In this document: piece after piece, positions 18,369 through 44,469 of the stretch
Layout: the number at the start of each line of letters is the position of its first letter
Numbering within the stretch: position 1 is the first letter of the stretch
DNA from: Pseudomonas phage HPP-Temi
Length of the DNA: 64,000 nt
Strand: one strand, 5' to 3'
Sequence record: PP968062.1
Made by a program: the position numbers and the translations under genes
The notes under the pieces: generated by a model
The model's database searches: none
The model's input: only the letters and a program-made list of their open reading frames with translations
What the model was told of the DNA's origin: nothing

Positions 18369-18400
18369 AAAGCCCTGCCTTTTTGGGCAGGGCGATATGT
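18363..18400 (-). terminator. hairpin (gccctgcc-tttttg-ggcagggc) with GGCATAAAG / CGATATG flanks
   Basis: Motif family member, right after the stop at 18407. Confidence 0.55.
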
Positions 18401-18406
18401 TGTTAC

Positions 18407-20983
18407 TTACAGAGCTTTGCGAACAGCGCCAACGATACCATCAGCCATGTCGAGTGCGTGTTGAGTTGTGAACTTGTACGCATCAACGTGAGCGTGGGAT
18501 ACCTTCAGCATTGCAGAAGCCAGATCGTCGAGATCAGCTTGCTCGTTCCAACCCGATGCACGAGAAGTAGTATCGAATTCACTGGAACCCGTACTCAGAG
18601 CACGGTTACGAGTAACATCAAGATTAATGATGTCATCGATCGCTTTGGAACCAACCGAGTCAGCGAGTTTATCAGCCAGAGCAACGTAAGCCTTAGCCAT
18701 CTTCAGCATGTTAGCCAGATCAGCTTTTGTTACATCGAAGGAAGTAACACGATCAGCTACTTTGACTTTCTTGAACACAGGAACAAGAGTGTAGCCAATA
18801 GCTTCGATACCACTGTCACGACCACGTGCACCTTTCTCGTACTCAATAGCCCAACCACCCATGAGGGCGTTAGCCATGTTTTCCGGATACTTGGCAGGTT
18901 TGATGTTCAGAGCAGTCTTAACCAGCGGACCAGTCTTCTCGTAACCACCTTCGGTAACAGCCTTGTTGATTACACCTACTACTTCTTGCAGAGCACGTTC
19001 AGAGTCTTTGATACCCTTAACAGCGATCTCGGAAGTAACACGCAGGTCTTTAGCAACAGCCTGTACCAGGTTACCATCTTTGGTAGCCAGATCAGCGGAG
19101 ATACCTTTAATGGTTTCACGACCGATGTTGGATTGACTGAGTTTGGTCAGGGCCAGGTCTACATCTTTGTTAAGAGCGTTCGCACGTTTCTTAACTTTAG
19201 TGACCAGAGGACCTTCCCACCATTTGATCAACTTCTCGTTCAGAGCACGCTTCAGGCCAGTAATACGACTAAGGAAACCACGGAAGGATTCCAGCGAGGC
19301 ATTGTAGTACTTGTCGAGATCGTCTTTACCATAGTTTTCCATGGAAGGAATGGCAGGAGCTGCATTACCGAATGCCTTAGCGAGTTCATCCAGTTTAGAC
19401 TGAGTCAGAACCAAAGTCTGAACACTGTAGCTTTCGTTAGACAGACCATACTTCAGGATCTCCATGAAGCCTTCAACAGACTCTTTCTCTCTCTGAAGAT
19501 CTTCGATGGTACGAGAAGCATCAACGGCTTCTTCTTCATCAGCGTTAGCATCTTCTTCAGCTTCGTCTGCTTCTTTTGTGGCTTCGGCTACATCGTCCTC
19601 AGTGACATCAGTGTCAACGTCTTCGATATCCAGTTCACCTTCGTCAAAGTCAGCTTCGCCATCTGCGTCGATTTCTCCATCGGGAGCGTCTTCTTCGATT
19701 TCTTGGAGGACGGGCTCTTCTTCGGTGGATTCACTCTCAGACTCATTTGGAGTCTCATCGGTAGACTCGGGTTCTTCAGCTGGTGCATCTTCAACCTCCG
19801 TCTCAGTTTCGGCAGGAGTCTCTTCTTCGATAACAGGTTCGTCCGCAGGTGTCTCTTCGACTTCTTCAGTCTCAGTAGCACTGGGTTCTTCCAGTTCAAC
19901 CGGCGGTTCTTCCGCAGTAGACTCCTCAACAGGAGTTTCGCTTTCTTCTACAACGGGCTCTTCGAGTTCAGCTTCAGTCTCTGGGACTTGTTCTTCAACC
20001 GGAGTTTCCTCAGCAGGAATATCGGTGCCAGTATCTTCCGCAACTTCCTCAGTGGTCTCTTCAGTCTCAACTACGTCGGCAGCAACTTCTTCCTCGGTAG
20101 TTTCCGCAATTGATTCCTCTACCTGAGGTTCAGATACTTCGCCAGCTTCTTCTTCCAGTTCAGGAGTAGATACACCGTCTACGGGAGCATTAGCGTCGTC
20201 AGTAGCCTCGGGTTCCAGTTCCGGCATTTCTTCCTCTTCGCCACCTAGAGTCTCACCACCTTCAACAGCAGCAGGTTCTTCATTGGTAGCTTCAGGAGCA
20301 GCGTCACCAACATCGCCTACTTCAGACAGATCTGCCGAGGAGGTTTCATCGGTAGCTTCAACCGGAGCCTCAGGAGCTTCACCTATAGTTTCAGCTTCAG
20401 CGGTTTCACCAGCGTCATCAACTGTAGTTTCAGTATTCAAGGATTCGATGTCACCAGTCTGTTCGGAAGCACCGGTTTCACCGGAGTTCTCGATATCAAC
20501 ACCGGAATCACCTTGTTCGTCAGTAGCCGGAGTATTACCGTTTACATCGACATCACCGGACTCGATAGCTTGGGCATCGGAAGCAGCTGCATCAACAGTT
20601 TCTTGTTGAGTGGCTTGGATCTGCTCAGCTTGTTCGGTGAGTTGCTGTACTTCAGCAGCCTGAGCTTGTTCAGCTTGGCTAGCCGCAGCTTCAGCAGCGG
20701 TTTCGTTAGTAGTAGCCATCGGTTCAGGAATGCCAGTAGACTCATCGTTGGTCTCGCCAACGACAGGTTCTTCTACTACTTCCAGATCGCCATCAGGTTT
20801 TACTTCTTCGGTAGGGGTAGCTTGAGCCAGTTCATCACCAGCTTCAACCACATCATTTTCCGGAGTTGCAGATGCTTCTACGTTAGTAGCATCTACAGTT
20901 TCAACAGTCTCGGGCTTGTCTTCGGTGGAGCTCTCATCGAAGTCTTCGAGACTGGTGATATATTTGTGGATGTTCTTCAACAT
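18407..20983 (-). CDS. paralog-family protein, 858 aa, with an about 480-aa hyper-acidic E/T/P/V/A-rich N-terminal region and a conserved C-terminal core
   Basis: The core shares the motif block SMENY...L.KL with 5-6 neighbouring proteins; the N-terminus MLKNIHKYITSLEDF is shared with gene 22249..23676. Confidence 0.7.
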   Translation of the reverse strand: MLKNIHKYITSLEDFDESSTEDKPETVETVDATNVEASATPENDVVEAGDELAQATPTEEVKPDGDLEVVEEPVVGETNDESTGIPEPMATTNETAAEAAASQAEQAQAAEVQQLTEQAEQIQATQQETVDAAASDAQAIESGDVDVNGNTPATDEQGDSGVDIENSGETGASEQTGDIESLNTETTVDDAGETAEAETIGEAPEAPVEATDETSSADLSEVGDVGDAAPEATNEEPAAVEGGETLGGEEEEMPELEPEATDDANAPVDGVSTPELEEEAGEVSEPQVEESIAETTEEEVAADVVETEETTEEVAEDTGTDIPAEETPVEEQVPETEAELEEPVVEESETPVEESTAEEPPVELEEPSATETEEVEETPADEPVIEEETPAETETEVEDAPAEEPESTDETPNESESESTEEEPVLQEIEEDAPDGEIDADGEADFDEGELDIEDVDTDVTEDDVAEATKEADEAEEDANADEEEAVDASRTIEDLQREKESVEGFMEILKYGLSNESYSVQTLVLTQSKLDELAKAFGNAAPAIPSMENYGKDDLDKYYNASLESFRGFLSRITGLKRALNEKLIKWWEGPLVTKVKKRANALNKDVDLALTKLSQSNIGRETIKGISADLATKDGNLVQAVAKDLRVTSEIAVKGIKDSERALQEVVGVINKAVTEGGYEKTGPLVKTALNIKPAKYPENMANALMGGWAIEYEKGARGRDSGIEAIGYTLVPVFKKVKVADRVTSFDVTKADLANMLKMAKAYVALADKLADSVGSKAIDDIINLDVTRNRALSTGSSEFDTTSRASGWNEQADLDDLASAMLKVSHAHVDAYKFTTQHALDMADGIVGAVRKAL

Positions 20984-21007
20984 GTTGTTTACCTTTCTGT
21001 ACAGAAT

Positions 21008-21040
21008 ACGAGTAGCGCTGTTCGTCCTAAACGCTACTCA
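21008..21040 (-). terminator. hairpin (gagtagcg...cgctactc)
   Basis: 8-bp stem after the stop of gene 21079..22200. Confidence 0.45.
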
Positions 21041-21078
21041 TGGACGAAACACTGTTTCAGATTATTGAACGCCATGGC

Positions 21079-22200
21079 TTACTTAATGTTGGCACTGCAT
21101 ACATTAAGAGTAGCGTTAAGATTACGCCCGGCAAGAGCCAAGACACCCAAATAAGGATTAGCAAGCCAATCAATGTAGCGCTCAAGCACTTCAACAAACT
21201 GACGTAGAACTGTTTCATCTACTCCCTCGATTTGGTCATTGGCAACCTGATTACGGATTCCTTTAACAATTGCAAGCATTGCACGGATCCGTTCCTTACG
21301 ACGATGACGAATGTTCATGCCACTAGCACGTCCAAACATTTCAGCCATCTTCTCTACTTGGCGCAATACAGAGATCTGTACAGGACCGCCAAAATGTTGG
21401 AACTTGATCACACTAGGAATCGGAAGCGGGTCACGCTCGGAGTTATCTAGCTTAACGCTGATACCCATCATTCGTTCGTAACCAGTAGCCTCTGGTGCCT
21501 TATCAAGGACGACCATTTGGTAATTACCCATTAGGTGTAGAGACTCATGGCGGTAACCGCGATGGTTGTACAGCGGATTGGATGCAACCATCTTAACAGG
21601 GTTATTCAACATGATGGTTTCAATGAGCTTCTTCAGTTCCTCAGTCGACTTGATAGTGGTAGGGATATGGAATGCAGCTCGAATGAGTTCTTCGTTGTTA
21701 TAGTCAAAGAACTGTTTACCGATTTGTTCTAGGTTCTTTAGGTTTGCAATTAAAGCCTGAACTTCGTTAATAGCCTTATACCGAACACACAGGTTCTGGA
21801 TACGTGTAGCTACTTCGAAGGTAGGTTCCTTAGAACGACGTGCAGTAGTACGAGTGAGCGTACTTAGTTCTTCTACACGGAGAAGGATCTTATCGAAGGC
21901 AAGAGACAATGCAAGACTACCATCAAACATGTCTTCCATGATTCGAGTAAGGAAAGCAATGATCTTATCCAGAATACCGACTACGGTACCTTTAAAGTCT
22001 TCACAACCTAGATCCAGTAGATGAGCTTCTCTTTGGAAAACGGGATAGTTCTCAAATCCACCAATGAGATCGAGAATCCGATTAGCAGTTGCTTCATCTT
22101 TTTCCAGTAGTGCACTAAGAGCCGCAGGAGAATCATCGAATACTACGGTTTCCTCTTGCGGTGGGATTTCCACTTCGAGAGGGATAGTTTGTGTTTCCAT
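21079..22200 (-). CDS. hypothetical protein, 373 aa, possibly a divergent member of the paralog family (FENY...DKIIAFLTRIMEDM)
   Basis: ORF; weak motif resemblance. Confidence 0.6.
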   Translation of the reverse strand: METQTIPLEVEIPPQEETVVFDDSPAALSALLEKDEATANRILDLIGGFENYPVFQREAHLLDLGCEDFKGTVVGILDKIIAFLTRIMEDMFDGSLALSLAFDKILLRVEELSTLTRTTARRSKEPTFEVATRIQNLCVRYKAINEVQALIANLKNLEQIGKQFFDYNNEELIRAAFHIPTTIKSTEELKKLIETIMLNNPVKMVASNPLYNHRGYRHESLHLMGNYQMVVLDKAPEATGYERMMGISVKLDNSERDPLPIPSVIKFQHFGGPVQISVLRQVEKMAEMFGRASGMNIRHRRKERIRAMLAIVKGIRNQVANDQIEGVDETVLRQFVEVLERYIDWLANPYLGVLALAGRNLNATLNVCSANIK

Positions 22201-22213
22201 ATTAACTCCTGAA

Positions 22214-22250
22214 CATAAGACGGGACTCCGAAGAGCCCCGTCGATGTCTT
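22214..22250 (-). terminator. hairpin (gacgggactc-cgaa-gagccccgtc) plus CTTATG
   Basis: Family member between co-directional genes. Confidence 0.55.
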
Positions 22251-23676
22251 AGTCTTTTGCCGGCGCTTTATGCATGGCGACTTCTTGCATGTAGACAGAA
22301 GCGTAGGCTGCAACAGTGCGGGTAACGTACCGAATGATTTCACGAGAACGCGGGTTGGATTCGCGAATCATTTCCAGAGCGGTTTGAGTTACTTTGCGAG
22401 CAGCTGCTTTAGAAGCTTCGTCCAGATCAGCGGAGGTCAGTTGACCTTCGATCTTCTCAACGGCTTTCTTAATAGCTTCGGCACCTTCTTTGATCTTACC
22501 GTGTTCGTCACGAGCCTTCTTCAGGATCTCGATAACGTTACGCAGATTCTTGGTGTTCTTACGCAGAGTGCTCGGATCAGATACCTTCACTTCGAATTCA
22601 GCTGGAGCTTCTTTCGCAGAAGCAGCTGGACCGATACCGTAGACGATACCATCAGCATGCAGTTCTACACGCATATTGCCAGGGAACACATCGTGGTTAG
22701 CACCATAGATATCATCCAGCGGAGCGATAGCGTGACGGAGTTTATCCGACATTTCATCGCCATCACCTTTGACAACACTGTAGCTGTTCAGCAGCTTAGC
22801 CAGGTTCTCGTAATACTTCTTAACTGCGCTCGGATAAACGTAAGCAGAGAAGTGAGCCAGACCCGAGAGAGCTTTGGTATCGTTCAGTTTGGATTTACCG
22901 TTAGCAAACACAGGACCCGGATTACTCAGGATAAAGGTCTTACCGGTACCACTCCAAACATTACCACCCGCTTCAAGAGCTTCTTCTACTTTAGCAACAG
23001 CGTTATCTGCTTTGGTGATACCAGTCATCAGATTCTCAACGCCATCAAGGATAGCGGTAACAATCTTAGCGATGATCTCTTTCAGTTTCTCGAACGCCTT
23101 GTTAGCGTACTCTTTGATATCTTCAACAGAGATCTCAGCACGCAGGATAGCAGAACGATCACCGGCATCATACGATTCGAGACCAGTGGAAATTTTATTG
23201 GTACCCAGGACACGTTCAACTTGTTTGATACCTACACGGAGGAAGGCAGCAGTTTGTTGAGAGATATCACCACGAGCTTGACGCAGGAGACCAGTATAAG
23301 CTTCCAGAGCGTGTTGTGTTTCGATCAGTTCGTCAGCACGTTGTTCCAAGATCTCTTTCTCAACATGAGCATGAGAAACAGCATCGAGAACGCCAGCGGC
23401 TTCAGTTACATCGATAGGACCTTCAACCGGAACGATCTCGACAGGGACTTCAGTCGGAACAGGTTCAACAACATCTGCACCTACGGCACCGATTTCAGGA
23501 ACCGGAGTAGGAACAGGGAGTTCTTCAGGAACAGTGGTACCAACCACCGGAGTCTCTACGACTTCAACGGGTTGGGTTTCGATAGGAGCTTCTGCAACGG
23601 CAGCAACTTCTGGAGTAACCGGAGCTTCTTGGAACTCTTCCAGGCTACTGGTATACTTATGGATGGATCGTAGCAT
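22249..23676 (-). CDS. paralog-family protein, 475 aa (P/V/E-rich N-terminal extension)
   Basis: Motif ALEAYTGLLRQARGDISQQTAAFLRVGIKQVERVLG...GLESYD is shared with the other paralogs. Confidence 0.7.
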   Translation of the reverse strand: MLRSIHKYTSSLEEFQEAPVTPEVAAVAEAPIETQPVEVVETPVVGTTVPEELPVPTPVPEIGAVGADVVEPVPTEVPVEIVPVEGPIDVTEAAGVLDAVSHAHVEKEILEQRADELIETQHALEAYTGLLRQARGDISQQTAAFLRVGIKQVERVLGTNKISTGLESYDAGDRSAILRAEISVEDIKEYANKAFEKLKEIIAKIVTAILDGVENLMTGITKADNAVAKVEEALEAGGNVWSGTGKTFILSNPGPVFANGKSKLNDTKALSGLAHFSAYVYPSAVKKYYENLAKLLNSYSVVKGDGDEMSDKLRHAIAPLDDIYGANHDVFPGNMRVELHADGIVYGIGPAASAKEAPAEFEVKVSDPSTLRKNTKNLRNVIEILKKARDEHGKIKEGAEAIKKAVEKIEGQLTSADLDEASKAAARKVTQTALEMIRESNPRSREIIRYVTRTVAAYASVYMQEVAMHKAPAKD

Positions 23677-23736
23677 TACATTTTCCTCAGAGGAGAATCA
23701 TCGCGCGATGATGATTGTTGATAACCATAGAATTGG

Positions 23737-24897
23737 TTAAGATGCGGCACTGAGCTCCATCTCACAGACCTTGTTACGGATGTCTGTAATCGAGTTGATG
23801 CGTGCAACAATAGGACCGTAGCTAGGACGGAGTTTAGGGATGAAGTCCATCACGATGCTGGATACCTGATCCAGAGCTTCACGAGACTTCTTCCAAACGG
23901 TTTCCCCACGGCGATCTTCAAGCTTGATAAGATCCTGAGTCAGACACTTCATCTGGTCATAAATCTTAGCCTCTTCCTTAAACAGCTCACCCAGATTGTT
24001 AGTAACCTGCAAGTTGTGTTTAAGAGTGCGTTCAATTTCAAGACGGCTACGTACGTGATGTTCGTACTCATGTGGACCTTCAGTCATCTCATCGTCATGT
24101 ATAACGTAAGGACCTAGGGAGTCATGGCGGAAACGAATCAGGTAGTTACCAGGAAGGACAATGTCTTTCATGGGGTAGACGATACTGGTATGCTTACCAA
24201 TGAACTCTGAGTTTGCTTCAAAGGTCGTAATGTCACCAGTTTCTACATCATAGCTCTTGAGCGATTTGCATAGGCGATTGATGTTATCAATGACGTACTT
24301 CGGATACGTTTGCACGAAGAACTTCATTACAGCGGTTTCAGCTTTGAAATCGTCCAGGCAGAACTCAGAGCCTGCAAAAAGTTTTGTTGCTCCACTGATA
24401 GTGATCGTAGTGTCACCATTGTGGAATTCCATGCTCGTCTTCCGAGAAGGAGATTGACGAGTCAGTTTCAAGAGTTCTTCTGTTTTCTTTTCAGTACGAG
24501 TAAGACCGCTCGTTACTCGTTGAGCAAGTTGCTTAGCTTCTTCGATGATCTTTTCGATCAACTCAAGAATCTTCTTACCGATTTCTTTTAACTTATCAAC
24601 AAGAGACTCTTGCGATACAGTCGGATCAGTTAACAGGGCTTCAAGCGATACACGTTCTTTCTTACCCAGTACGTGATCAATGTGTTCAAGGCCAACAGCC
24701 ATGAACTTACGGGTTTGTAAACTAAGACCATCTCGACCAGCATCAGTCAGTTGGTCGAGATAGTTTTCAACAGCAATGTGCGCTTCAAACAGTTCTCGGA
24801 ATTCATGTTCGTGATCATTGATGATCATGTCAGGATATTCTTCTTGGGGACTGTCTTTCAACTGAGGGCGGTTAGCCGGGTTTTGACGGGTGTCCAT
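23737..24897 (-). CDS. paralog-family protein, 386 aa
   Basis: Motif AVENYLDQLTDAGRDGLSLQTRKFMAVGLEHIDHVLG...SLEAL. Confidence 0.65.
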   Translation of the reverse strand: MDTRQNPANRPQLKDSPQEEYPDMIINDHEHEFRELFEAHIAVENYLDQLTDAGRDGLSLQTRKFMAVGLEHIDHVLGKKERVSLEALLTDPTVSQESLVDKLKEIGKKILELIEKIIEEAKQLAQRVTSGLTRTEKKTEELLKLTRQSPSRKTSMEFHNGDTTITISGATKLFAGSEFCLDDFKAETAVMKFFVQTYPKYVIDNINRLCKSLKSYDVETGDITTFEANSEFIGKHTSIVYPMKDIVLPGNYLIRFRHDSLGPYVIHDDEMTEGPHEYEHHVRSRLEIERTLKHNLQVTNNLGELFKEEAKIYDQMKCLTQDLIKLEDRRGETVWKKSREALDQVSSIVMDFIPKLRPSYGPIVARINSITDIRNKVCEMELSAAS

Positions 24898-24939
24898 TGT
24901 ACGGTCTCATTGAGTTAAACATAGAATTTGGCAAGACAG

Positions 24940-24973
24940 TCATAAAGCCCTCCTTCGGGAGGGCTTTTATGTT
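24940..24973 (-). terminator. hairpin (gccctcc-ttcg-ggagggc) with CATAAAG / CTTTTATG flanks
   Basis: Family member. Confidence 0.55.
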
Positions 24974-26234
24974 AGTACTTAGTAAGCTCGTGTTTAGCGA
25001 TAGTCAGCTTGGCGTAAACAGAGGTTACGATCTGACGTTCAACTTGAGCGATTACATCCAGCGAACGGATCTTAGTGATCAGATTGGAGATAGCACCGAA
25101 TACAGCAGGATCATCCAGTTCAACGGTCAACTTAGCGCCGAGGTCATTGGATAGTTGTTGCAGTTCAGCATTGTGGCGATTCACAGCTGCATCATCAGTC
25201 ATGATACTCAGAACGCTTTCGCATTCTTGAGCAAACTTGGTGATAGCACTGGCAGGACGCAGTTCAACTTCGATAGGACCTTCAGCATCTGTACCTTTGA
25301 TGATCTTGAAGCCGAGGTTATCCATATCCCAGGACAGACGAATACTACCCGGAAGGAAGTCTTGACCAACAGAAGCTTGAGTGACGTTAGTCATCTCAGT
25401 GTGGGTATGATCCAGAACACTTTCGATGTATTCTTGAGCACTACCTTTACCAACGTTGTTAGTAGCGAATTTCATTACCGACATCAGAGCTTTCGGTAGA
25501 CGATCGTACAGGAATACAACATAAGCTTTCTCGTTAGCAATCGTATCATAGGTGTTCTCACCATCGGCTACGATGTTACGGGTATCTTCGATCTTGACTT
25601 TGGTAGACTCTTCATCAACATCGCCCTTACGAGCTTGAATCTCTTCAGCTTTCTTACGTAGATCTTCCGAAACATTGTCCGGTACTGAACCACGCATCTT
25701 ACCGCCAGGATAAGCGGGGAATGCACGAGAAGCCAACATAAGTTGTTGAGCAGCTTGTTTGGTTTTAGCCTTAGGACCAGCCAGTTTCTGATAAACAGCC
25801 TTAGCACGTTCGATCAGTTTAGCAATGAACTCCATGATACGCTTGCCAAGGGCCTGTACACGCTCTTTAACGTCCTCAATCGACACAGTGGTAGTCTGCA
25901 AGCCGTCACGCAGAGAACACGTCTTAAACGCTTCCAGAGACAGTGCTTCGCGCTGGATACCAAGACTAGCATCGATCTGTTTCATACCAATCCGCATCAT
26001 GGCAGCGGACTGTTTGGTGATACCTTTATCACCAGCTTGTTTCAGGAGTTGAGAATATGCTTCGAGGGATTCAGCGACACCTTCGAGTTCTTCGGATTCA
26101 ACTACTTCTTGTTCTGCAACTTCATTTTGGAAGTCGGATACGTCTTCAATCTCGACCTGGATATCCTCAGCAGGTTCGATGATCGTGTCAGCGGGTTCTG
26201 TATTTACGTTACAGGGCATTTCGGTGTCTAACAT
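24972..26234 (-). CDS. paralog-family protein, 420 aa
   Basis: Motif SLEAYSQLLKQAGDKGITKQSAAMMRIGMKQIDASLG...SLEAF. Confidence 0.7.
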   Translation of the reverse strand: MLDTEMPCNVNTEPADTIIEPAEDIQVEIEDVSDFQNEVAEQEVVESEELEGVAESLEAYSQLLKQAGDKGITKQSAAMMRIGMKQIDASLGIQREALSLEAFKTCSLRDGLQTTTVSIEDVKERVQALGKRIMEFIAKLIERAKAVYQKLAGPKAKTKQAAQQLMLASRAFPAYPGGKMRGSVPDNVSEDLRKKAEEIQARKGDVDEESTKVKIEDTRNIVADGENTYDTIANEKAYVVFLYDRLPKALMSVMKFATNNVGKGSAQEYIESVLDHTHTEMTNVTQASVGQDFLPGSIRLSWDMDNLGFKIIKGTDAEGPIEVELRPASAITKFAQECESVLSIMTDDAAVNRHNAELQQLSNDLGAKLTVELDDPAVFGAISNLITKIRSLDVIAQVERQIVTSVYAKLTIAKHELTKY

Positions 26235-26261
26235 GATTGCCTCGAAAAGGGAGTTGGATTA

Positions 26262-26298
26262 CATAGCATAAAGGGAGCCGAAGCTCCCCATGCTTTTA
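26262..26298 (-). terminator. hairpin (gggagc-cgaa-gctccc) with CATAGCATAAAG flank; on minus, CCCTTTATGCTATG
   Basis: Family member. Confidence 0.55.
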
Positions 26299-28983: not shown

Positions 28984-29011
28984 ATCGATTCTCTGACTTG
29001 TGAATTGGATA

Positions 29012-29052
29012 ACATAGCATAAAGGGGAACCGCGTGGTTCCCCGATATGACG
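29012..29052 (-). terminator. hairpin (ggggaacc-gcgt-ggttcccc) with CATAGCATAAAG flank; on minus, CCCCTTTATGCTATG
   Basis: Family member, nearly identical in its flanks to the 26262 copy. Confidence 0.55.
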
Positions 29053-30351: not shown

Positions 30352-30361
30352 GGACCCCTCC

Positions 30362-30901
30362 TCAGTTATTTATCTTTTCAGGGACACTACCAAACAACAT
30401 GTTCAGTGTGTACATGAGATCGTCAAAGCCACCTTTCCGTTTCAGCCATGCTTGAAGCATTGCATCTACATCCGGAGACAGACCGTAGCTCAGGAACAGC
30501 TCAGCGATATCACGACGGTCTTCGATCAGTTGAAGACCAGCCGGCGGCTCAGCAGTAAGAAGCATCGGCCAGGAATGAATGCTCATCCGACGTGTACCAG
30601 TTGCAATGAAGCGAACGGTATCTTTCAGGAAAGCGTAGTTGTGATCAGCGATCAGTGCGTTGTTGTCTTGACGGATGAACCAGTTATAGTTACCATCAAA
30701 CTTAACACGTGCTAGGTCGATTACACGCTTACGGAATTCCCAATAGACGGTACGACGAGGGAAGTTGGTATACTCGATCATCAGCTCAACTACCCGAGGA
30801 TCACCTTGACGCATGGTGAAACGTTGAGTAGCTTTAGCTTGACCACCGGAATACTCACGGCTAGCATCGAAAGGTTTGACTGCATTAGTAGGCATGGTCA
30901 A
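30362..30901 (-). CDS. hypothetical protein, 179 aa
   Basis: ORF. Confidence 0.6.
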   Translation of the reverse strand: MTMPTNAVKPFDASREYSGGQAKATQRFTMRQGDPRVVELMIEYTNFPRRTVYWEFRKRVIDLARVKFDGNYNWFIRQDNNALIADHNYAFLKDTVRFIATGTRRMSIHSWPMLLTAEPPAGLQLIEDRRDIAELFLSYGLSPDVDAMLQAWLKRKGGFDDLMYTLNMLFGSVPEKINN

Positions 30902-30905
30902 CTCC

Positions 30906-31799
30906 TTAGTTTACGCCGGCACGTTCTTCGATCTTAGCGATCTCGTATTCGTAGGCGGAGATACGACGCTCGTAAGCTTCGATTTGTTTCTGAAGTACAG
31001 GGCTGGTCGGTTCTTTAGCCAGAAGAGCACGCAGTTCTTCCAGACGAAGCTGGAGACCGTAGTATTCTTCTTGAGCTACGTTGTAACGTTCAGCTTGCAT
31101 TTCAGCAATCAGCTTGCCGATAATCAGGAACGGGTTTTGACGAGGCGAGAAGCCAGCCATACCCAGCGGGTCAGTCTTAGTCAGACCGAGGTTCTGTTGA
31201 GCGACTTGGAAAGTAGCTTCGTCAACAGTAGCATTAGAAGCAGCATTCAGCTTAGACTTCAGAGCTTGAGGTTGCAGAACCATTGCCGGGTACAGAGCAG
31301 CAAACTGCTCCATGTTGGTTTCGATCCAATCGGATTCCGCCGAGGTCCAAGCGGCACGGGTAGCTTTACCATGAAGGGCAGCTTCTTGGGCAACAAGGAA
31401 CAGAAGGTACTTACGACCGAAGCGAATGTAGAAAGCCAGACCTTCAATGAACTTGAGCATGTTAGCCCGGTCGAAGGTCAGGTTGGTGTTGGTGAACTGG
31501 ATAGAGAACAAGCTACGGATTTCTTTACGGATAACTTCGAAGTTACCACGGATGTTGTCCAGAGAACCGAGCATCAGATCGATAGCCGGAGAGTTAAAGT
31601 TAATCCCACGGCGCAGTACCATTTCCATCCGCTTAGCGAGATTGGATTTCAGGGGAATACCCTGGAAGGCCTCCCGAACGTCTGCAACGATCGGGGCCAG
31701 TGTATCGTCATATTCAGTCTGGAGTTGATCCAGAACGTTCAGCAGTTGACGACGCTCCATTACAGGTGCAAGCTGCTGGACATAGTTAAGAATACTCAT
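30906..31799 (-). CDS. hypothetical protein, 297 aa
   Basis: ORF. Confidence 0.6.
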   Translation of the reverse strand: MSILNYVQQLAPVMERRQLLNVLDQLQTEYDDTLAPIVADVREAFQGIPLKSNLAKRMEMVLRRGINFNSPAIDLMLGSLDNIRGNFEVIRKEIRSLFSIQFTNTNLTFDRANMLKFIEGLAFYIRFGRKYLLFLVAQEAALHGKATRAAWTSAESDWIETNMEQFAALYPAMVLQPQALKSKLNAASNATVDEATFQVAQQNLGLTKTDPLGMAGFSPRQNPFLIIGKLIAEMQAERYNVAQEEYYGLQLRLEELRALLAKEPTSPVLQKQIEAYERRISAYEYEIAKIEERAGVN

Positions 31800-31814
31800 C
31801 TGTCATGTCCTTAG

Positions 31815-32993
31815 TTAAATGTTGGTTTGCATCTGTTTGCTGAACATCTTGAAGATTTCAGTGATGTCCTGACCTTTGGATTTCTCGGCCATCTTGATTT
31901 CGTCGATACGGAAGCTCGAAGAGATATCCACACCACGATGATAGATGGTCACACGCTGCCAGCGCTCGTCAACAACGATCAGCATCAACAGGTAGCTGTT
32001 GTCGAATATTTTGCGACGGGTATTAGCGTCTTCCAGCTTGCCATACAGAGCGTTAGCAGTTTCTTTCATAGTCGAAGCGGAAACTACAGCAATGTTGGAT
32101 GCATCAGCCATGGATACACGGCCAGTCTGAACAGACTTGCTCAGGTTGTTACGACGGCGATCAGTGATTTCCTTGTAGACACCAGACTTGTCACTTACCA
32201 GAGCAGCGAAGTGAGCATCGATCATATCCTGACCGAGAACGAAGTCGCGCCAGAAACGAATCTGACCAGTCTTAACCAGGAAGAGGCGATGACCCCAAGT
32301 ATCACGTCCGCCGGCACTAAAGATATGAGTAAGAGTCTGCGACGGAACTGCTGCCGGAATCAGACGAATGAGCACAGGTAGTTTTGCCTTGGCGTCACCA
32401 TCGGTGATTTCAACGTTCAGCAGCTTACCAACAGCGAGGTTCTCAGTTTCGTATACTTTCTGGGTATCGCCCGAAGACATACGAGGAGAAGCTTCTTTCT
32501 TATCACCTTTCTTACGATCATCGTCTTTCGATTGTTCGAATGCTTCTTGCGAGTATTCGGCAATCAGTTCAGGACGGATCTTTTGGTTGAACGATTCCAG
32601 AGACGGGAAACCGTTCTGGTAGTTCTCTTTGGAGAACACAGCGCCACTAACATCAGCACCGATCGAACGGTACGGGTTCAGGCTGTCGAATACTTTGAGA
32701 GTATCGATCTTACCAACACCAAGTACCATGTTAACAGCTTGCAGATAATATCCAGCGAACTGGCTCAGTGCCATCTTCAGGATATCTTGCATGTACGGTT
32801 GGTCGACCAGAACGCTATCAATGATAGCGAGAGGCTCAACCCGACACGGGCGAGTCAAATCGGCAAGAGAGTTGATCTCCATGCTATTTTTGGTCGCATT
32901 AAGGACTGTGGTCATAAGACCTTTAAAAGCTTGGCTACCGGCAGCAGCACCCGCTGCGCCAGCCATAGCACCAGCTACGATTGGTAGTGGCAT
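31815..32993 (-). CDS. hypothetical protein, 392 aa (G/A-rich N-terminus)
   Basis: ORF. Confidence 0.65.
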   Translation of the reverse strand: MPLPIVAGAMAGAAGAAAGSQAFKGLMTTVLNATKNSMEINSLADLTRPCRVEPLAIIDSVLVDQPYMQDILKMALSQFAGYYLQAVNMVLGVGKIDTLKVFDSLNPYRSIGADVSGAVFSKENYQNGFPSLESFNQKIRPELIAEYSQEAFEQSKDDDRKKGDKKEASPRMSSGDTQKVYETENLAVGKLLNVEITDGDAKAKLPVLIRLIPAAVPSQTLTHIFSAGGRDTWGHRLFLVKTGQIRFWRDFVLGQDMIDAHFAALVSDKSGVYKEITDRRRNNLSKSVQTGRVSMADASNIAVVSASTMKETANALYGKLEDANTRRKIFDNSYLLMLIVVDERWQRVTIYHRGVDISSSFRIDEIKMAEKSKGQDITEIFKMFSKQMQTNI

Positions 32994-33034
32994 CGTTCTC
33001 TTCCTTCATTGGTTCGCAGAGATTTGAAAAAATG

Positions 33035-34075
33035 GCATTAAGTGATTATCTAACGCAAATTACACAGAACATTGGGATGTCGCCGCGCGATCGTTCCATT
33101 GAAGATTCCTTCAAAGGCCTGAACATCACAGGTCGTAACAATGCGATTTCGTTAAATACAGAAAACCATGGTTATACTTTCTTTACCCGCCCATTGCTGA
33201 ACTTGGCTGAGGATAACTGCATGGTGGACAGACGTCTGTCCATGATCCTGAATCCTAACCCACAAAGTATCGAGCGTATGGTTAGGGCATATTTGGATCC
33301 ACGAGCTCATAGTGAGGGTGGCACAACATGGTGCGCTGGAGTAGATCCTCTTAACCCTTTCATCCCTTTGCTCAGTAACAACTTGATTAGTCTTACTGGC
33401 TGGGAAGATTTCACTATCAACTTGGGAACCACAACTCCCGGTGTGTACCGTGACGTAATGTCCTACGTGGACGACGTGCCATATCAGTACAACACCTACG
33501 ATTTACAGGCGACGTTCCGCAATATTGCTGGAGATCCTATAACATGGATGTTCAAGATCTGGCTAGTCTATATGGGTCTCAATCGTGAGGGTCGTATCCT
33601 ACCTTATCCAGATTTGCTGATGTTAAACGAATACGATGCGAACACTCGTATCTATCGCTTAGTGATGGACTCTACTAAGACGTTTGTTACCCGAATTGCA
33701 GCTTGTGGTGCAGCGCTTCCAATGAACGCTCCTACAGGTCAGATCATCAACTTTACAGGCGATGGCGCAGAGACTCCGTTCCAAACTGCTAGTGATCAAC
33801 TCAACTTTAGTTTCCGTTGTATGGGAATGACAATTTACGATCATATCTTGATCTATGAGTTTAATGATCTTGTTGAAACATTTAACCCGCTAATGCGTGA
33901 CAACAATAGGGGTCGTCTGACTCAGAAGTTGAAACAGCATGAAAAGAAATGGTTTAACTTCCAAGCCTATCCATATATCAACGGTACTACCATGGAACTC
34001 GAATGGCATGTACCGAAATCTATCTACGAACAGTTGGCTGGTGGGAACCTGACCCGCGGATTCAATCCAAGTTGA
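33035..34075 (+). CDS. hypothetical protein, about 346 aa (ATG MALSDYL preferred over the track's TTG at 32981)
   Basis: The track ORF starts at TTG 32981, inside a divergent overlap; the first ATG is at 33035. Confidence 0.55.
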   Translation, partial: ALSDYLTQITQNIGMSPRDRSIEDSFKGLNITGRNNAISLNTENHGYTFFTRPLLNLAEDNCMVDRRLSMILNPNPQSIERMVRAYLDPRAHSEGGTTWCAGVDPLNPFIPLLSNNLISLTGWEDFTINLGTTTPGVYRDVMSYVDDVPYQYNTYDLQATFRNIAGDPITWMFKIWLVYMGLNREGRILPYPDLLMLNEYDANTRIYRLVMDSTKTFVTRIAACGAALPMNAPTGQIINFTGDGAETPFQTASDQLNFSFRCMGMTIYDHILIYEFNDLVETFNPLMRDNNRGRLTQKLKQHEKKWFNFQAYPYINGTTMELEWHVPKSIYEQLAGGNLTRGFNPS

Positions 34076-34085
34076 GGAAATTTTA

Positions 34086-37001
34086 ATGAGTCAGTTTAAA
34101 GAACGGATGTATAGTGCACGACGCAACCCCGCGTTGATGCAGACCATCGCTCTTAATGAACTGGATGCGCAAATAAACGGCTCTGGTAACGGAGCCGTTG
34201 TTGCAGATATTCCAGATGCTTCCATTCCGTTCGTATTCTCTCTTGAATGCGGATCGATGGAAACCGCCATGGCTATCAGCGAGATGGAAGCTCTTGGTCG
34301 TCAGCTATATCCTCGTCTGTCCCTGAACAACGAAGAAATCTACAAGCACATGTCCGATGACGATTACATTGGACGTTTCGCTTCTCCGGCTAAGACACCG
34401 TTTAACTTCTTGATCGCTTATGATGAAATTATCGCTAAAGCCGTCCCCGTCGGTAACACCGGTATCCGTAAACTTATTATCCCTCGTCTGACCGAGTTCG
34501 ATGCTGCTGGTATTAAGTTCACTATGCAGTACCCGATTGAAATTCGTGTAATGCGTCATGGTGGCATCACGATTGAATATGTACTCGATAAGACTTCTCC
34601 CGTTGAGACCCTTTCTACTAACATTGTCCCTTGGACCATGTTGGTTATCGATCGTCGTAAAGTCGTGTCACTCCAGATTCCGGTTTATCAGTTTGCAGTT
34701 AAGACCCATACTGAATCCCTGAACCCATCGAGCTTGTTCCAACAGTCTTATCCATTCACTGATAAGTTCTTCTATGCTCGGGCTTATATTAGCCGTGCAG
34801 AGAATGATCAATGGGAGGAAGTTAAGACTACCCACTCCGATCTCGTTTATGACCCGATGAATCTGACCGTAGTGTTTAAGGTAGTGGGTAATAAACTCCA
34901 GGTGAGTATCCCGACTATCTACACCAATACACGGATGGCTCAAGGCGATATTCGAATCGACATCTATACCACTCAAGGTAAGATGGATCGTGATCTGGGT
35001 TCGTACAAAGCTAACCAGTTTAAATTCTGGCTGAATGACATCGATGATGATCGCACCTTTGTATCCCCTCTTACTACCTTTAACTTGATTCAAGCTTTGG
35101 CTCGTGGTCGTGTAGAGGGTGGCGCAGATTCGGTAGACTTCAACGTACTCCGTAACCAAGTTATCAATAACACCCTGGGTGCTAACCAGGTACCAATCAC
35201 TAACGTACAGATCGAAGATGCTGTTCAACGTCGTGGTTATACCTTAGTATCCAACATCGATAACATTACCAATCGTCAGTTCCTCGCCTCAAGACGTCTA
35301 GGAGAGCCTAGAGCGCTCGATGTTATTTCTGGTGCTGGCGTTGCTATGTCTCAGCTAAAGGTTGATATGGAGTCCCTAGCGGGCTCTGTACACGTGTTTG
35401 ACAATGGTGATCGTCTCACTATCAAACCGAGCATGCTTTATACGTTCAACAAAGGACGTGTGAACACTGTAGCCGATGCTGAGATTACTCGACTGACTGG
35501 CAGCACTGCCGAACAGATCGCTCGTGAAGTAAACAACGGTCGTTACGTATATTCTCCTTTCCACAACGTACTCGATGCATCGCGTGAGAACTTTGAGGTT
35601 CGTCCTTATTACTTGGATAACCCGACTATCACTGAGAAGATCTTCGTTGGCGAGAACGATACAGCTAACCTACAAGCAGCTATCGATGTATTCAATATCG
35701 AGAAGACTGAAGATGGTTATCGGATTACTGTTCGTTTGGAATCCGGAGAGCAGTTCAAGAAACTGGCCGATGAGCAGATCGTATTGCAAATTGGTTATCA
35801 ACCTCCAGGTGAGAATCGTTGGGCTTCCGTTAACGGTAAGTTCATCGGCATTGAAGATGAAGAACGCGTATTCGCTTTCGATATCAAGACAAGGCATGAC
35901 ATCAACTCGAAGAATGAACTGTATACGACTAACATGTCGATGTTCTCTGACGTACAGAACAACTTCGCTACTCCGTTGAACACTCTGCTTGACGTTACCA
36001 TCATGGTAGTCAATACTACAACTCCAGGTTATCAACCTAACGTGATCGATGAGATGGTTCAGGTTCACCTGCTCCCTCAGCAATTCATGGTTGTAAACCG
36101 TGAACGCCTCGTAACTGTATTGGGTTACGACATGACCAAGATGTGGCGGCGTAGCCGTACTGTTCTGGGTGATGAATCGTATCAACATTGGGACCACGAT
36201 GTAATGTGGTTCTATGAGGAGAATGAGTATCAGCGTGACGAACAAGGTAACATTATTGTTGAGATTCTTCCTAACGGTCAACTCGACTACAAGATCCTCC
36301 ACAAGAAAGGAGATCCTGTTCTGGATGCCAATGACGTTCAAGTTAAGAAGCATCAACGTGGTGATGTTATTCTAGACACTAATGGTCGACCTGTATTGGT
36401 TGCTCCTCGTAAGCGTCTTCGTGAAATCACTCTGATGATGGTCGATGGTTTGTTCTACTTCGCTAACGAGAAATCCGCTCTTGACTACAAAATCGAGATT
36501 CCGATGGAGTTCGTTACTTGGCTGGCAAACGACATCTCTATTCTTGATGCACAACTTCTTGAGATGTGCGAGATGTATCTCTATCCGACTACTACTTACG
36601 GTGACACTACTGTTACTGTTCGTGAAGGTCAGAAGGCTACCATCTCCGTAGACCAAGCGTTCACTCTTAGCTTCTATTTGAAGCCTGCTGAATACACCAA
36701 CACTACAATCCGTCCGAGCCTGATGTCTAATGGTAAGTCGGTATTAAACGAGTATATCAGTCGTAAGACTGTGTCGATGTCCGAGACAGTTGCACAACTG
36801 GAAGCTACCTCGGGTGATGGCGTACAAGCACTTGAAGTGTTCGGTCTGGGTGGCACTGACAACTACGCAATCCTTACAGTAGAAGACGATGCAGTTCGTT
36901 TGGCTATTCGTAAGAAGCTGGTTGTACTGGCTAACCAAGAACTGACTGTGGAGGATGACGTGCAGTTCAACTTCCTCAAACATGAAGTGCTTTCGAACTA
37001 A
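34086..37001 (+). CDS. large hypothetical protein, 971 aa (candidate major structural protein)
   Basis: Longest ORF in the window; ends at a bidirectional hairpin. Confidence 0.7.
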   Translation: MSQFKERMYSARRNPALMQTIALNELDAQINGSGNGAVVADIPDASIPFVFSLECGSMETAMAISEMEALGRQLYPRLSLNNEEIYKHMSDDDYIGRFASPAKTPFNFLIAYDEIIAKAVPVGNTGIRKLIIPRLTEFDAAGIKFTMQYPIEIRVMRHGGITIEYVLDKTSPVETLSTNIVPWTMLVIDRRKVVSLQIPVYQFAVKTHTESLNPSSLFQQSYPFTDKFFYARAYISRAENDQWEEVKTTHSDLVYDPMNLTVVFKVVGNKLQVSIPTIYTNTRMAQGDIRIDIYTTQGKMDRDLGSYKANQFKFWLNDIDDDRTFVSPLTTFNLIQALARGRVEGGADSVDFNVLRNQVINNTLGANQVPITNVQIEDAVQRRGYTLVSNIDNITNRQFLASRRLGEPRALDVISGAGVAMSQLKVDMESLAGSVHVFDNGDRLTIKPSMLYTFNKGRVNTVADAEITRLTGSTAEQIAREVNNGRYVYSPFHNVLDASRENFEVRPYYLDNPTITEKIFVGENDTANLQAAIDVFNIEKTEDGYRITVRLESGEQFKKLADEQIVLQIGYQPPGENRWASVNGKFIGIEDEERVFAFDIKTRHDINSKNELYTTNMSMFSDVQNNFATPLNTLLDVTIMVVNTTTPGYQPNVIDEMVQVHLLPQQFMVVNRERLVTVLGYDMTKMWRRSRTVLGDESYQHWDHDVMWFYEENEYQRDEQGNIIVEILPNGQLDYKILHKKGDPVLDANDVQVKKHQRGDVILDTNGRPVLVAPRKRLREITLMMVDGLFYFANEKSALDYKIEIPMEFVTWLANDISILDAQLLEMCEMYLYPTTTYGDTTVTVREGQKATISVDQAFTLSFYLKPAEYTNTTIRPSLMSNGKSVLNEYISRKTVSMSETVAQLEATSGDGVQALEVFGLGGTDNYAILTVEDDAVRLAIRKKLVVLANQELTVEDDVQFNFLKHEVLSN

Positions 37002-37002
37002 G

Positions 37003-37040
37003 CGGCATAAAGCCCGGCCTTGAGCCGGGCAATATGTCGT
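37003..37040. terminator. bidirectional hairpin (gcccggcc-ttga-gccgggc) with CATAAAG / CAATATGTCGTT flanks between convergent genes
   Basis: Family member at a convergence point. Confidence 0.6.
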
Positions 37041-38278
37041 TAAACACCGAGTTCGCGTTTGATCTCTTCAAACTTCTTATTCAGTGCTTCCCAGCCCGCG
37101 TCAGCTACATCGCTAACAACGTGTGCGTAGAAGTCTTCACGAACGATATCGTGAGCCTTGATGAAGAAGTTAGCGTAGGTCGCACCGGCTTTGTACTGAT
37201 ACAACGGCAGCTTATGGAAGATGTTAACCATGTCATTCAATGCTTCGATGCCAGTATTGATACTCTCAACAGTGGCTTGTAGCTGTGACATAGGTACAAC
37301 CGATTCTTCGAAATCATAACGACGGATCTTGCGAAGTTCATCTGCACACTGACCGTAGATATCGTAGATGAAACGGTACGAGAAAGCTTCACGCTTCAGC
37401 ATACGCTTAGAATCTTCGAAGAAACGAACACCAACACGTTTGTGCTTGATGTAGAAGTTAGGATCGTCAGATTGAGTATCCATGTTCTTCAGAGTTTCAG
37501 CCAAAGACTTAAGACGCGGACCAACGTGAGAATCGAAACCAAGTTCCAGACGGGAACGGTCCATTACCTGACGTACTTGACGGACTTGTTCAAGTAGCTG
37601 AGCGCCATACTTCTGAGCTTCTTGTTGGAGGTTACGTACACGACGAAGATCGTCATCTACACCAAAAGCCAGAAGACCCAGATCAGAACGAGGGAGCTTA
37701 GGATCAAGCAGAACAACTTCAGCAGCTTCGTAGTACTTACGATCTAGATTACGAGTACCAAGCTTGTTCATGGCTTGCATCGCTTTCCAGTTCGATTCCA
37801 GTTTGACGATCTGGCCGTTGATGCTATCAATACGACCTTGGATGAGTTCATCAGTCATCGTGAGAGACTTAACCCAACGCCAGGCTTTAGCTACGAAGTC
37901 AATCAGAGCACGGAACCATTCCTTGATAGTAGCAAGGATAGCTGCACCGATAGCTTCATTAGAAACTTTCATGTTAAGGCTGGTACGCGTCGGAGTGAAC
38001 AGTGAGTTATAGTTCTCAAGGGAAGGATATACCGGAACATTCAGACCGATCGATTCCATGGAACTATGGATGTTACGAAGAGCAGTGATGTCGTGCGAGG
38101 ATACACCTTCTGCTTTGATAGTAGCACGCAGCTCAGTCAGAGTAGTTAGATGCTCCAGTGCAGCGTGTACTTTGGTTTGCAGTTCGGGGTCAAGTTGAAC
38201 ACCGGCTACGGGTTCTGCTTCAACCTCTCGATCAAGCAGTCGTTGTTCTTCAAAAAGAACATCTTCATGTTCATGCAT
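37040..38278 (-). CDS. paralog-family protein, about 412 aa (start moved to the ATG with an AAGGT SD)
   Basis: Motif SLENYNSLFTPTRTSLNMKVSNEAIGAAILATIKEWFRALIDFV parallels the GLESYD block. Confidence 0.65.
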   Translation of the reverse strand: MHEHEDVLFEEQRLLDREVEAEPVAGVQLDPELQTKVHAALEHLTTLTELRATIKAEGVSSHDITALRNIHSSMESIGLNVPVYPSLENYNSLFTPTRTSLNMKVSNEAIGAAILATIKEWFRALIDFVAKAWRWVKSLTMTDELIQGRIDSINGQIVKLESNWKAMQAMNKLGTRNLDRKYYEAAEVVLLDPKLPRSDLGLLAFGVDDDLRRVRNLQQEAQKYGAQLLEQVRQVRQVMDRSRLELGFDSHVGPRLKSLAETLKNMDTQSDDPNFYIKHKRVGVRFFEDSKRMLKREAFSYRFIYDIYGQCADELRKIRRYDFEESVVPMSQLQATVESINTGIEALNDMVNIFHKLPLYQYKAGATYANFFIKAHDIVREDFYAHVVSDVADAGWEALNKKFEEIKRELGV

Positions 38279-38573
38279 TTTCATTACCTTTAGAATGCTC
38301 GTGGAGCTTGTCACGTAGGAGGTACAACTCTAAACGAATAATCTCCTCAATCGCCTTACGTCGTGCAACAATAACACCACGCTTAGAATCGAAGGCAGTT
38401 TTATTCGCAACAATTGCATCGGTGACTATCCGATGTCCATTACTTAGTTTAGTAATGCAGACAGTCACCAACATTTCAGGGTCAGAGATGATCTTCTCTT
38501 TAACAATTAACGACTTGGCGTATGCTTTAGTAATCCTAGGATGCACCAAATCGTCATGGGTATGGTCGACCAT
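38271..38573 (-). CDS. hypothetical protein, 100 aa
   Basis: ORF. Confidence 0.5.
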   Translation of the reverse strand: MVDHTHDDLVHPRITKAYAKSLIVKEKIISDPEMLVTVCITKLSNGHRIVTDAIVANKTAFDSKRGVIVARRKAIEEIIRLELYLLRDKLHEHSKGNENA

Positions 38574-44431: not shown

Positions 44432-44469
44432 CAACATATTGCCCGGCTTAAGGCCGGGCTTTATGTCGT
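44432..44469. terminator. bidirectional hairpin (gcccggc-ttaa-ggccgggc) with CATATTG / CTTTATGTCGTT flanks
   Basis: Mirror image of the 37003 copy; at a convergence point. Confidence 0.6.

Follow-up and report, generated by a model that had tools for sequence, protein, structure and literature searches.

Eight genes of Pseudomonas phage HPP-Temi probably form an inner-body cluster of the phiKZ type

Between about 18.4 and 38.3 kb of a 64-kb stretch of the genome of Pseudomonas phage HPP-Temi (record PP968062.1; the whole stretch is called the window here) lies a series of minus-strand open reading frames (ORFs) with acidic N-termini. Do these genes constitute one family, and what would their products do in the phage head? 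A preliminary description of the DNA had listed seven of them as paralogs with a conserved core, cleavable acidic extensions and a shared N-terminal tag, and had likened them to the inner-body and ejection proteins of phage phiKZ. The proteins around this region were labelled A-Q. All seven listed ORFs are present on the minus strand and their coordinates were confirmed: A (18407-20983, 858 residues), B (21079-22200, 373 residues), C (22249-23676, 475 residues), D (23737-24897, 386 residues), E (24972-26234, 420 residues), F (26296-28983, 895 residues) and L (37040-38278, 412 residues when counted from the ATG at 38278). The estimate of at least seven members holds, but G (29053-30351, minus strand, 432 residues), a homologue of phiKZ gp92, had been overlooked, which makes a total of eight.

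The eight genes very probably represent the internal-head ('inner body') cluster of a phiKZ-like jumbo phage and correspond to phiKZ gp86 and gp92-gp97. The central idea of inner-body or ejection proteins with cleavable acidic propeptides and a shared tag is supported by homology and by synteny. The region from 15 to 40 kb is gene-for-gene collinear with phiKZ gp84-gp99, phiPA3 gp086-104 and 201phi2-1 gp151-162. The order J-I-H-G-F/E/D/C-B-A-O-P (gp89 to gp99), taken as the mark of a phiKZ inner-body locus, is conserved in 6 reference phages, and annotated loci with equal gene order include those of phiKZ, phiPA3, Psa21, Phabio and 201phi2-1. The phiKZ inner-body genes gp92-gp97 (phiPA3 gp095-102, 201phi2-1 gp154-159) share position, gene order and the PF12699 family with the genes in the window. 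G corresponds to gp92, B to gp96 and A to gp97; F, E, D and C are of the gp93-95 type, with C a homologue of gp95 and D a paralog of the gp94/201phi2-1 gp156 type. There are 4 copies of the gp93/94/95 type here, 3 in phiKZ and 5 in phiPA3. L is the orthologue of gp86 (PF25617, PDB 8Y6V chain G), in the same place after the homologues of gp84 and gp85, and convergent with the homologue of gp87.

Protein identity between the window and the phiKZ-type loci is 25-45%. A tblastn search of the phiKZ genome with C gave three matching places, the best being gp95 (PHIKZ095, expectation value 1e-20). The nearest DNA relatives were found by megablast with positions 22249-26234, which returned only Pseudomonas jumbo phages, all at about 78% identity: PS119XW (Pawinskivirus), PA1C, BRkr, phiLBG22, HHBS36_1 and phiHQ (seven matches, PS119XW being counted in two records). 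The corresponding genes of these phages carry the annotation 'internal head protein' or 'virion structural protein', and the PS119XW orthologues that of 'internal head protein'. All eight proteins fall in PHROG 'head and packaging' families. The guanine-cytosine (GC) content of the window is about 46.5%, and that of PS119XW is 43.6%; for HPP-Temi, proposed as a second Pawinskivirus species, a value of 46.46% has been reported (PMC11591403).

The same orthology bears on whether the ORFs are real head genes at all. Long shadow ORFs run antisense to A (18383-20113, plus strand, 576 residues) and to C (22270-23673, plus strand, 467 residues), as might be expected if the listed ORFs were spurious products of a compositionally biased region, or non-structural late proteins. 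However, the minus-strand ORFs have length-matched, conserved orthologues in seven phages, and 201phi2-1 gp154-159 are annotated as found in the virion by mass spectrometry, so that this explanation is effectively refuted. Since the orthologues belong to the minus-strand genes, the shadow ORFs most likely arise from biased codon composition in the acidic and V/P/A-rich linkers.

Whether all eight proteins are paralogs was examined with methods of increasing sensitivity. Detectable pairwise similarity, as the claim of a family demands, was found by all-against-all BLASTP, which joins only C, D, E and F, at expectation values of 1e-11 to 1e-17 (protein E matches D at 1e-16 and C at 9e-14). A and C are also paired by BLASTP over their first 18 residues (61% identity, expectation value 0.002). 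The Pfam family PF12699 (phiKZ_IP) has a gathering threshold of 27 bits, which is passed by C (224.6 bits), G (197.2), D (169.9), E (147.9), F (108, over residues 249-589) and B (32.5); B also belongs to phrog_12254, 'internal head protein'. L scores 19.5 bits, below this threshold, on its N-terminal 150 residues. Its membership in PF25617 (PhiKZ_gp86, threshold 26 bits) is given by 498.5 bits over model positions 2-408 of 408, and phmmer matches it to PDB 8y6v_G at an expectation value of 3.7e-34. A had no match in the Pfam scan, PF12699 included, and was assigned by synteny, by phrog_27483 and by profile comparison.

For the weak members, profiles of ortholog groups from seven phages were compared by hhalign with the profile of the gp93/94/95 type. 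The gp92 group (G) gave P 4e-11 (probability 97%), the gp97 group (A) P 2.2e-9 (96%, over the C-terminal 400 columns), the gp96 group (B) P 2e-7 (94%) and the gp86 group (L) P 2.6e-7 (93%, 406 columns). The neighbouring head-protein groups gp84, gp89, gp90, gp98 and gp99 had P values of at least 0.03 in the same comparison, and decoys made by reversing or block-shuffling the four test alignments had P values of at least 9e-4. A hidden Markov model (HMM) of the core gave expectation values of 3e-10 for G, 0.024 for L and 0.21 for B, and left A unscored. The profile alignments put the motifs of the preliminary description in register across all eight proteins, and a six-frame HMM scan of the window found no member beyond these eight. 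BLASTP, PF12699 and profile-profile evidence together place the seven ORFs listed earlier in one superfamily, of which L is a distant member. The certainty of membership, as judged from these sequence comparisons, is highest for C-F and falls through B and A to L.

It could be argued that A, B and L are not true paralogs of C-G, and that the likeness stems from a shared helical composition rich in E, K and L together with independently acquired protease-site motifs. BLASTP indeed shows no significant similarity of A, B and L to C-F outside the tag, and the core HMM values for the three fit this view. We nevertheless find it very unlikely. The hhalign matches of these proteins extend over 290-406 columns with motifs in register, and their P values are 3-6 orders of magnitude better than those of the decoys and of the five neighbouring head families; B lies above the curated Pfam cut-off. 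Furthermore, published AlphaFold comparisons group gp92-97 (PMC11297242), and gp97 has been reported with PF12699 (bioRxiv 10.1101/2024.03.24.586471).

Structure prediction was carried out for D, for which a homologue search of a protein database gave only 2 matches. An AlphaFold2 model built from a 7-sequence alignment (predicted local distance difference test score, pLDDT, 77.7; predicted template modelling score, pTM, 0.68) shows a long bundle of helices into which a small beta element is inserted. Compared with BFVD, it matches 82 predicted viral structures at an expectation value of at most 1e-3, the best being B3FJ19 of 201phi2-1 with a template modelling (TM) score of 0.89. Among the best 50 of these 82 matches every named one is a jumbo-phage protein, several of them annotated as virion structural or internal head proteins; the named matches come from jumbo phages of Pseudomonas, Erwinia, Ralstonia, Klebsiella and Serratia. 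A Foldseek comparison of the model with the PDB gave nothing at an expectation value of at most 0.001, and gp86 is absent among the 50 matches listed. A word-indexed search of 5.8 billion proteins with the C-terminal 368 residues of A (18410-19510) gave zero matches, despite existing orthologues: those in PS119XW and PA1C are about 91% identical to A over residues 566-858, its predicted mature region. This kind of look-up thus seems to miss the C-terminal domain of A.

The function of the proteins can be approached through the phiKZ orthologues. gp93, gp95, gp97 and gp162 have been proposed as major inner-body components, and in AlphaFold models gp92-97, gp162 and gp163 have a helix-rich fold in common (PMC11297242). 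Fusions of gp90, gp93, gp95 and gp97, and also of gp92, are injected with the DNA, and gp92-95, gp97, gp162 and gp163 are PF12699 paralogs proteolysed during packaging (bioRxiv 10.1101/2024.03.24.586471). The number of such paralogs varies from two in SPN3US to seven in phiPA3 (PMC5694885). The phiKZ protease gp175 cleaves at S/A-X-E (PMC9026906); no prohead protease gene was found in the 64-kb window. phiKZ gp86 is a capsid vertex-binding protein (PDB 8Y6V), and gp86 together with residues 14-84 of gp93 is resolved on the inner capsid surface (PMC11297242). The inner-body or ejection identity that had been given to every listed member is therefore supported for A-F, but L is a vertex-binding protein of the gp86 type and not an ejection protein.

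The motif block described earlier, A/S-L-E-x-Y/F ... G-x-[IL]-[ST]-x-Q-x-A ... G/S-L-E-x-Y/F ... S-x-E-D followed by a long helix, is present. It holds three potential protease motifs, M1 ([A/S]-[L/V]-E-x-[Y/F]), M2 ([G/S]-[L/M]-E-x-[Y/F]) and M3 ([I/V]-S-x-E-[D/S]). In an alignment of 54 family sequences these read [SAG]-x-E in 33 of 34 (M1), 45 of 45 (M2) and 39 of 51 (M3) aligned sequences. The maturation sites of SPN3US gp53 and gp54 have been mapped by mass spectrometry (PMC10052503). In the family HMM alignment, AQE-125/GWKETLK of gp53 and ARE-137/SLWDDIK of gp54 (the slash marks the cut) align on M3, and AQE-124 of gp54 on M2. In the model of D a 53-residue helix begins at residue 96, with SQE-97 (M3) in its first turn, and the confidence dips at residues 81-90 to its lowest value within the folded part. 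Because of these alignments and the start of the helix in D, the conserved block is most likely the last (promoter-distal) segment of the propeptide, and the mature proteins would begin right after M3. The proposed architecture of block, acidic propeptide and tag was hence recovered, but the block is more likely the end of the propeptide than the core of the mature protein.

With this assignment, maturation sites can be predicted for all eight proteins. In A the block covers residues 496-565 (19289-19498) with SVE-504, SME-549 and SLE-565, and the predicted mature domain is 566-858 (18410-19288; 31.6 kDa, isoelectric point (pI) 9.4). B has the motifs GFE-50 and GCE-67 and a predicted mature domain 68-373 (34.8 kDa, pI 9.2). 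The block of C holds ALE-126, GLE-167 and SVE-185 (predicted mature domain 186-475, 31.5 kDa), that of D AVE-44, SLE-86 and SQE-97 (98-386), and that of E SLE-58, SLE-101 and SIE-120 (121-420). In F it covers residues 271-330 with ALE-279, GLE-319 and AME-330, followed by a predicted inner-body domain 331-614 (31.5 kDa). For G the predicted site is STE-84, with a mature N-terminus at residue 85; for L the block holds SLE-88 and SNE-108 in the numbering of the 412-residue protein, with a predicted mature N-terminus at 109. All predicted propeptides are acidic, with a net charge of -10 to -177. The mature domains that would remain are uniform, with 289-348 residues, 31.5-40 kDa and pI 5.9-9.4, which supports the assignment of M3 as the cleavage site.

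That the most conserved sequence of the family falls in the predicted propeptide raises the question of what this part does before it is removed. Most members could be a capsid-wall cement or a substitute for a scaffold in prohead assembly, rather than inner-body or ejected proteins, with the acidic propeptides and the block acting as the assembly core that phiKZ-like phages otherwise seem to be missing. Such a role would agree with the position of gp86 and of gp93 residues 14-84 on the inner capsid surface (PMC11297242). Giant phages are not known to have a scaffold like T4 gp22, and a scaffold role of long propeptides has been raised (PMC5694885). We regard this as rather unlikely for most members, as phiKZ gp92, gp93, gp95 and gp97 are injected with the DNA (bioRxiv 10.1101/2024.03.24.586471). 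Moreover, the two roles are not exclusive: in the published view, a single precursor is cut into one part that stays bound to the wall and another that belongs to the inner body.

Two members had been described as sharing a nearly identical N-terminus, and A (MLKNIHKYITSLEDF) and C (MLRSIHKYTSSLEEF) agree with this. The leader of A reads MLKNIHKYITSLE, then DF, and that of C MLRSIHKYTSSLE, then EF, with S-L-E ending at residue 13 in both (residues 1-13; 20945-20983 in A and 23638-23676 in C, minus strand). F carries a looser, degenerate tag in residues 1-20, MSIHNLQKHLGGGKATLSNE, then S; D, E, B, G and L are without it. A and its PS119XW orthologue have the same tag (100% identity), and the neighbouring linker is 71% identical. 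A similar leader, always ending in [S/A/G/T]-x-E, is found on paralogs in each phage examined (n=7): on phiKZ gp93 (MSLLKMLDKLSLE, then S), gp94 (MNLNKLLDSLE, then G), gp95 (MTFKLNEYLDSLE, then DY) and gp97 (MMVNIHKYVASLE, then N), on phiPA3 gp102 (MLKSLHKYLASVE, then EF), and on several others in Psa21, Phabio and 201phi2-1. A cut of phiKZ gp93 at SLE-13 is given in PMC5694885, where Thomas & Black 2013 is cited for it, and the cryo-electron microscopy model of gp93 begins at Ser14 (PMC11297242). The S-L-E at residue 13 of A and C coincides with this position, which supports the reading of the tag as a cleavable leader.

Leaders ending in A/S-S-L-E are also seen on phiKZ gp162 (MAKKKTVPAMDFFASLE, then R) and gp184 (MSKPNLEWLASLE, then S). 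For gp162, ASLE-17 followed by R is a reported cleavage site, the reported sites being E17 and E137; gp184 is mostly beta-strand and lies outside PF12699, yet bears the leader. It is also present on Noxifer gp219. The leader may be a general signal of processed head proteins.

The N-terminal extensions are acidic, as had been claimed, and rich in E, D, T, P, V and A. They precede the block with 41-56 residues in B, D, E, G and L (56 in E), 123 in C, 277 in F and 502 in A. The extension of A consists of 26% E and 10% D and has a net charge of -172, most of it in a linker of residues 14-495 (19499-20944; net charge about -170). The linker of C (residues 14-115) is rich in V, P, E and A, and that of F covers residues 111-270. 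The statement that the extensions are full of S/A/G-x-E sites applies to A (25 sites) and F (15), but only 2 sites were counted in C and 1 in E, and B, D and L lack them. Tandem DNA repeats were considered as the origin of the linkers and rejected, with only one weak repeat found (21 bp, 2.3 copies).

Transcription signals are in agreement with a late cluster. A GC-rich hairpin with (T)TTATG directly behind it comes after the stop codon in each of G, F, E, C and A; one more separates K from L, which are convergent. The elements are located at 28984-29052 (G to F, minus strand; hairpin, then TTTATGCTATG, interpreted as a terminator plus TATG), 26235-26295 (F to E), 24898-24971 (E to D), 22201-22248 (C to B; one wobble pair in the stem) and 18369-18406 (A to O), and at 37002-37039 (K/L). 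F, E, D, B and O thus have the hairpin-TATG upstream, and L has it beside its 3' end; ahead of A and C it is missing or shifted, the D-to-C and B-to-A gaps having hairpins with no adjacent TATG. A strict search found 21 such sites in the window, against about 1 in shuffled sequences. Every paralog had been taken for an independent unit flanked by this element. That applies to about five of the eight genes, but not to G and L, which lie inside operons and have no promoter element of their own, nor to the two gaps. G closes the J-I-H-G operon, whose genes are tightly packed (gaps of 4-15 nucleotides, G starting 10 nucleotides after H), and L overlaps a preceding ORF of 100 codons. Experiments on phiKZ have defined TATG as the motif of the late promoters used by its non-virion RNA polymerase, with transcription starting at the G (PMC4666361), and because the elements match this motif, late expression of the cluster is plausible.

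From these observations the following course can be proposed. The genes would be transcribed late by the phage non-virion RNA polymerase, from the TATG right after the terminator hairpin of the preceding gene. The precursors would enter the prohead by means of their N-terminal parts, namely the leader of 13-20 residues (A, C, F), the acidic linker and the helical block of about 70 residues, by analogy with the binding of phiKZ gp93 residues 14-84 to the inner capsid wall. A protease of the gp175 type would then cut after [S/A/G]-x-E at the end of the leader (SLE-13), within the linker and at M1, M2 and M3, as the mapped sites in phiKZ gp93 and in SPN3US gp53 and gp54, together with the conservation of the motifs, suggest. 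Cleavage at the predicted sites would free mature, mainly helical domains of about 290-350 residues, neutral to basic. These would build the inner body around which the DNA spools, and might be ejected into the cell with the DNA, as are phiKZ gp92, gp93, gp95 and gp97. L, like gp86, would stay instead on the inside of the capsid vertices.

The features have close counterparts in other phages. The phiKZ inner-body proteins likewise have an S-L-E leader, a variable acidic propeptide, the conserved block, a helical domain of about 300 residues and a TATG late-promoter context. SPN3US gp53 and gp54 ('paralog family A', PF12699) belong to the same family and have identical N-terminal 15-residue leaders with protease motifs; their propeptides have 125-137 residues, and the mapped sites align with M2 and M3 of the window proteins. 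SPN3US differs in having two paralogs only, a cleavage motif that is A-x-E only, and no acidic linkers of several hundred residues. In the T4 internal proteins IPI, IPII and IPIII, a capsid-targeting sequence (CTS) of about 10 residues targets the prohead core, the protease cuts after glutamate and the protein is ejected with the DNA (PMC9026906). They differ in being small, with a propeptide that is the CTS alone; the likeness to the window proteins lies in the mode of working, and no homology is claimed. A CTS-like role for conserved paralog N-termini has already been proposed for SPN3US gp53 and gp54 (PMC5694885). The tag of the window proteins may be likened to the T4 CTS, and a targeting role for its 13 residues is only a candidate. 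The PF12699 family, tandem paralogy, long cleavable propeptides, the S/A/G-x-E motif, conserved N-termini and TATG promoters are all already published for phiKZ, 201phi2-1, phiPA3 and SPN3US.

Several points weigh against assigning the eight proteins to a proteolysed inner body. The functional assignment is borrowed from orthologues in phiKZ and phiPA3, at 25-45% identity, or from farther relatives (SPN3US). Membership of A and L comes from profile-profile comparison, with the Pfam model missing A and placing L below its threshold. The [SAG]-x-E motifs in the linkers are not above the expectation from composition: composition-preserving shuffles gave 30.3 +/- 4.1 for A (25 observed) and 13.2 +/- 2.8 for F (15 observed), so that their density is not an independent signal. 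M3 as the maturation site is taken from the mapped SPN3US sites. Finally, M3 of F reads V-N-E, and its predicted site was for this reason moved to AME-330 by inspection.

F differs from its counterparts in other phages by an insert and an extra C-terminal domain, both lacking in the corresponding loci of phiKZ, phiPA3 and 201phi2-1. The inserted small domain (phrog_22140; residues about 37-86, within about 21-110; 28654-28923, minus strand) contains AVYHVNGVDWVFVKGEWV and sits between the leader and a conserved EDF(G/A)DAHEP segment. In phiPA3 gp096, 201phi2-1 gp155 and Phabio gp139 this segment follows directly after the leader. The C-terminal domain (phrog_28891; residues about 611-895 at 26299-27153, or about 615-895 at 26299-27141, minus strand) has no Pfam match and no PDB sequence match, and its absence from the three loci was established by domain-wise tblastn. 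In phage Noxifer the last 281-285 residues of F have counterparts that stand alone, gp218 and gp219, located away from the head module. At the joint F reads GME-614/SHD ... SNE-624/GFF, and the Noxifer N-terminus (MSENIQKFLDEN...VVSNE/GFF) aligns with it (CLNNLKVKGAGME/SHDPLVFSNE/GFF). As the leader of the Noxifer protein aligns with this internal joint, F looks like a gene fusion that kept the leader and two protease motifs at the joint.

Since the leader is shared by head proteins that are non-homologous (inner-body paralogs, gp162 and gp184 of phiKZ, and the gp218/gp219 family of Noxifer), a wider interpretation can tentatively be put forward, which is possible although we would not favour it at present. 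The leader (hydrophobic-x-x-[Y/F/L]-x-x-S-[L/N]-E) and the block of about 70 residues might be portable modules for head targeting and processing, and no part of the functional protein itself. F may then be a natural fusion, an inner-body paralog that absorbed a neighbouring tagged gene, with a second cargo domain of 32 kDa packaged and released in the head, and vertex proteins of the gp86 type would be an old offshoot kept on the capsid wall. The spread of the leader is in itself a point of mild interest. As by-products, the analysis gives predicted maturation sites for eight proteins, a prediction that the most conserved segment would be removed on cleavage, a relationship of the gp86 vertex protein to the inner-body family at the level of profiles, and a fused cargo domain in F of possible interest for the delivery of proteins by the inner body into Pseudomonas.

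The genes around the cluster follow the phiKZ order as well. H, I and J (30362-32993, minus strand) are counterparts of gp91, gp90 and gp89. Q (32981-34075) and K (34086-37001), both on the plus strand between J and L, correspond to gp88 and gp87, with K convergent to L. N and M are counterparts of gp84 and gp85, and O and P of gp98 and gp99. The 100-codon ORF that overlaps the start of L (38271-38573, minus strand, phrog_322) is the counterpart of phiPA3 gp088 and 201phi2-1 gp147. L most likely starts at the ATG at 38278, rather than at the GTG at 38314 of the ORF list, because an AAGG Shine-Dalgarno sequence lies 8 nucleotides upstream and the PS119XW orthologue agrees with this start.

Many of the hairpins are palindromic (CATAAAG-stem-loop-stem-CTTTATG), so that TATG follows the hairpin on both strands. 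Such sites are found at 66/87, 18369/18396, 24944/24968, 29021/29046 and 37009/37033, and further ones at 44438/44462, 45165/45189, 51695/51721 and 53329/53350.

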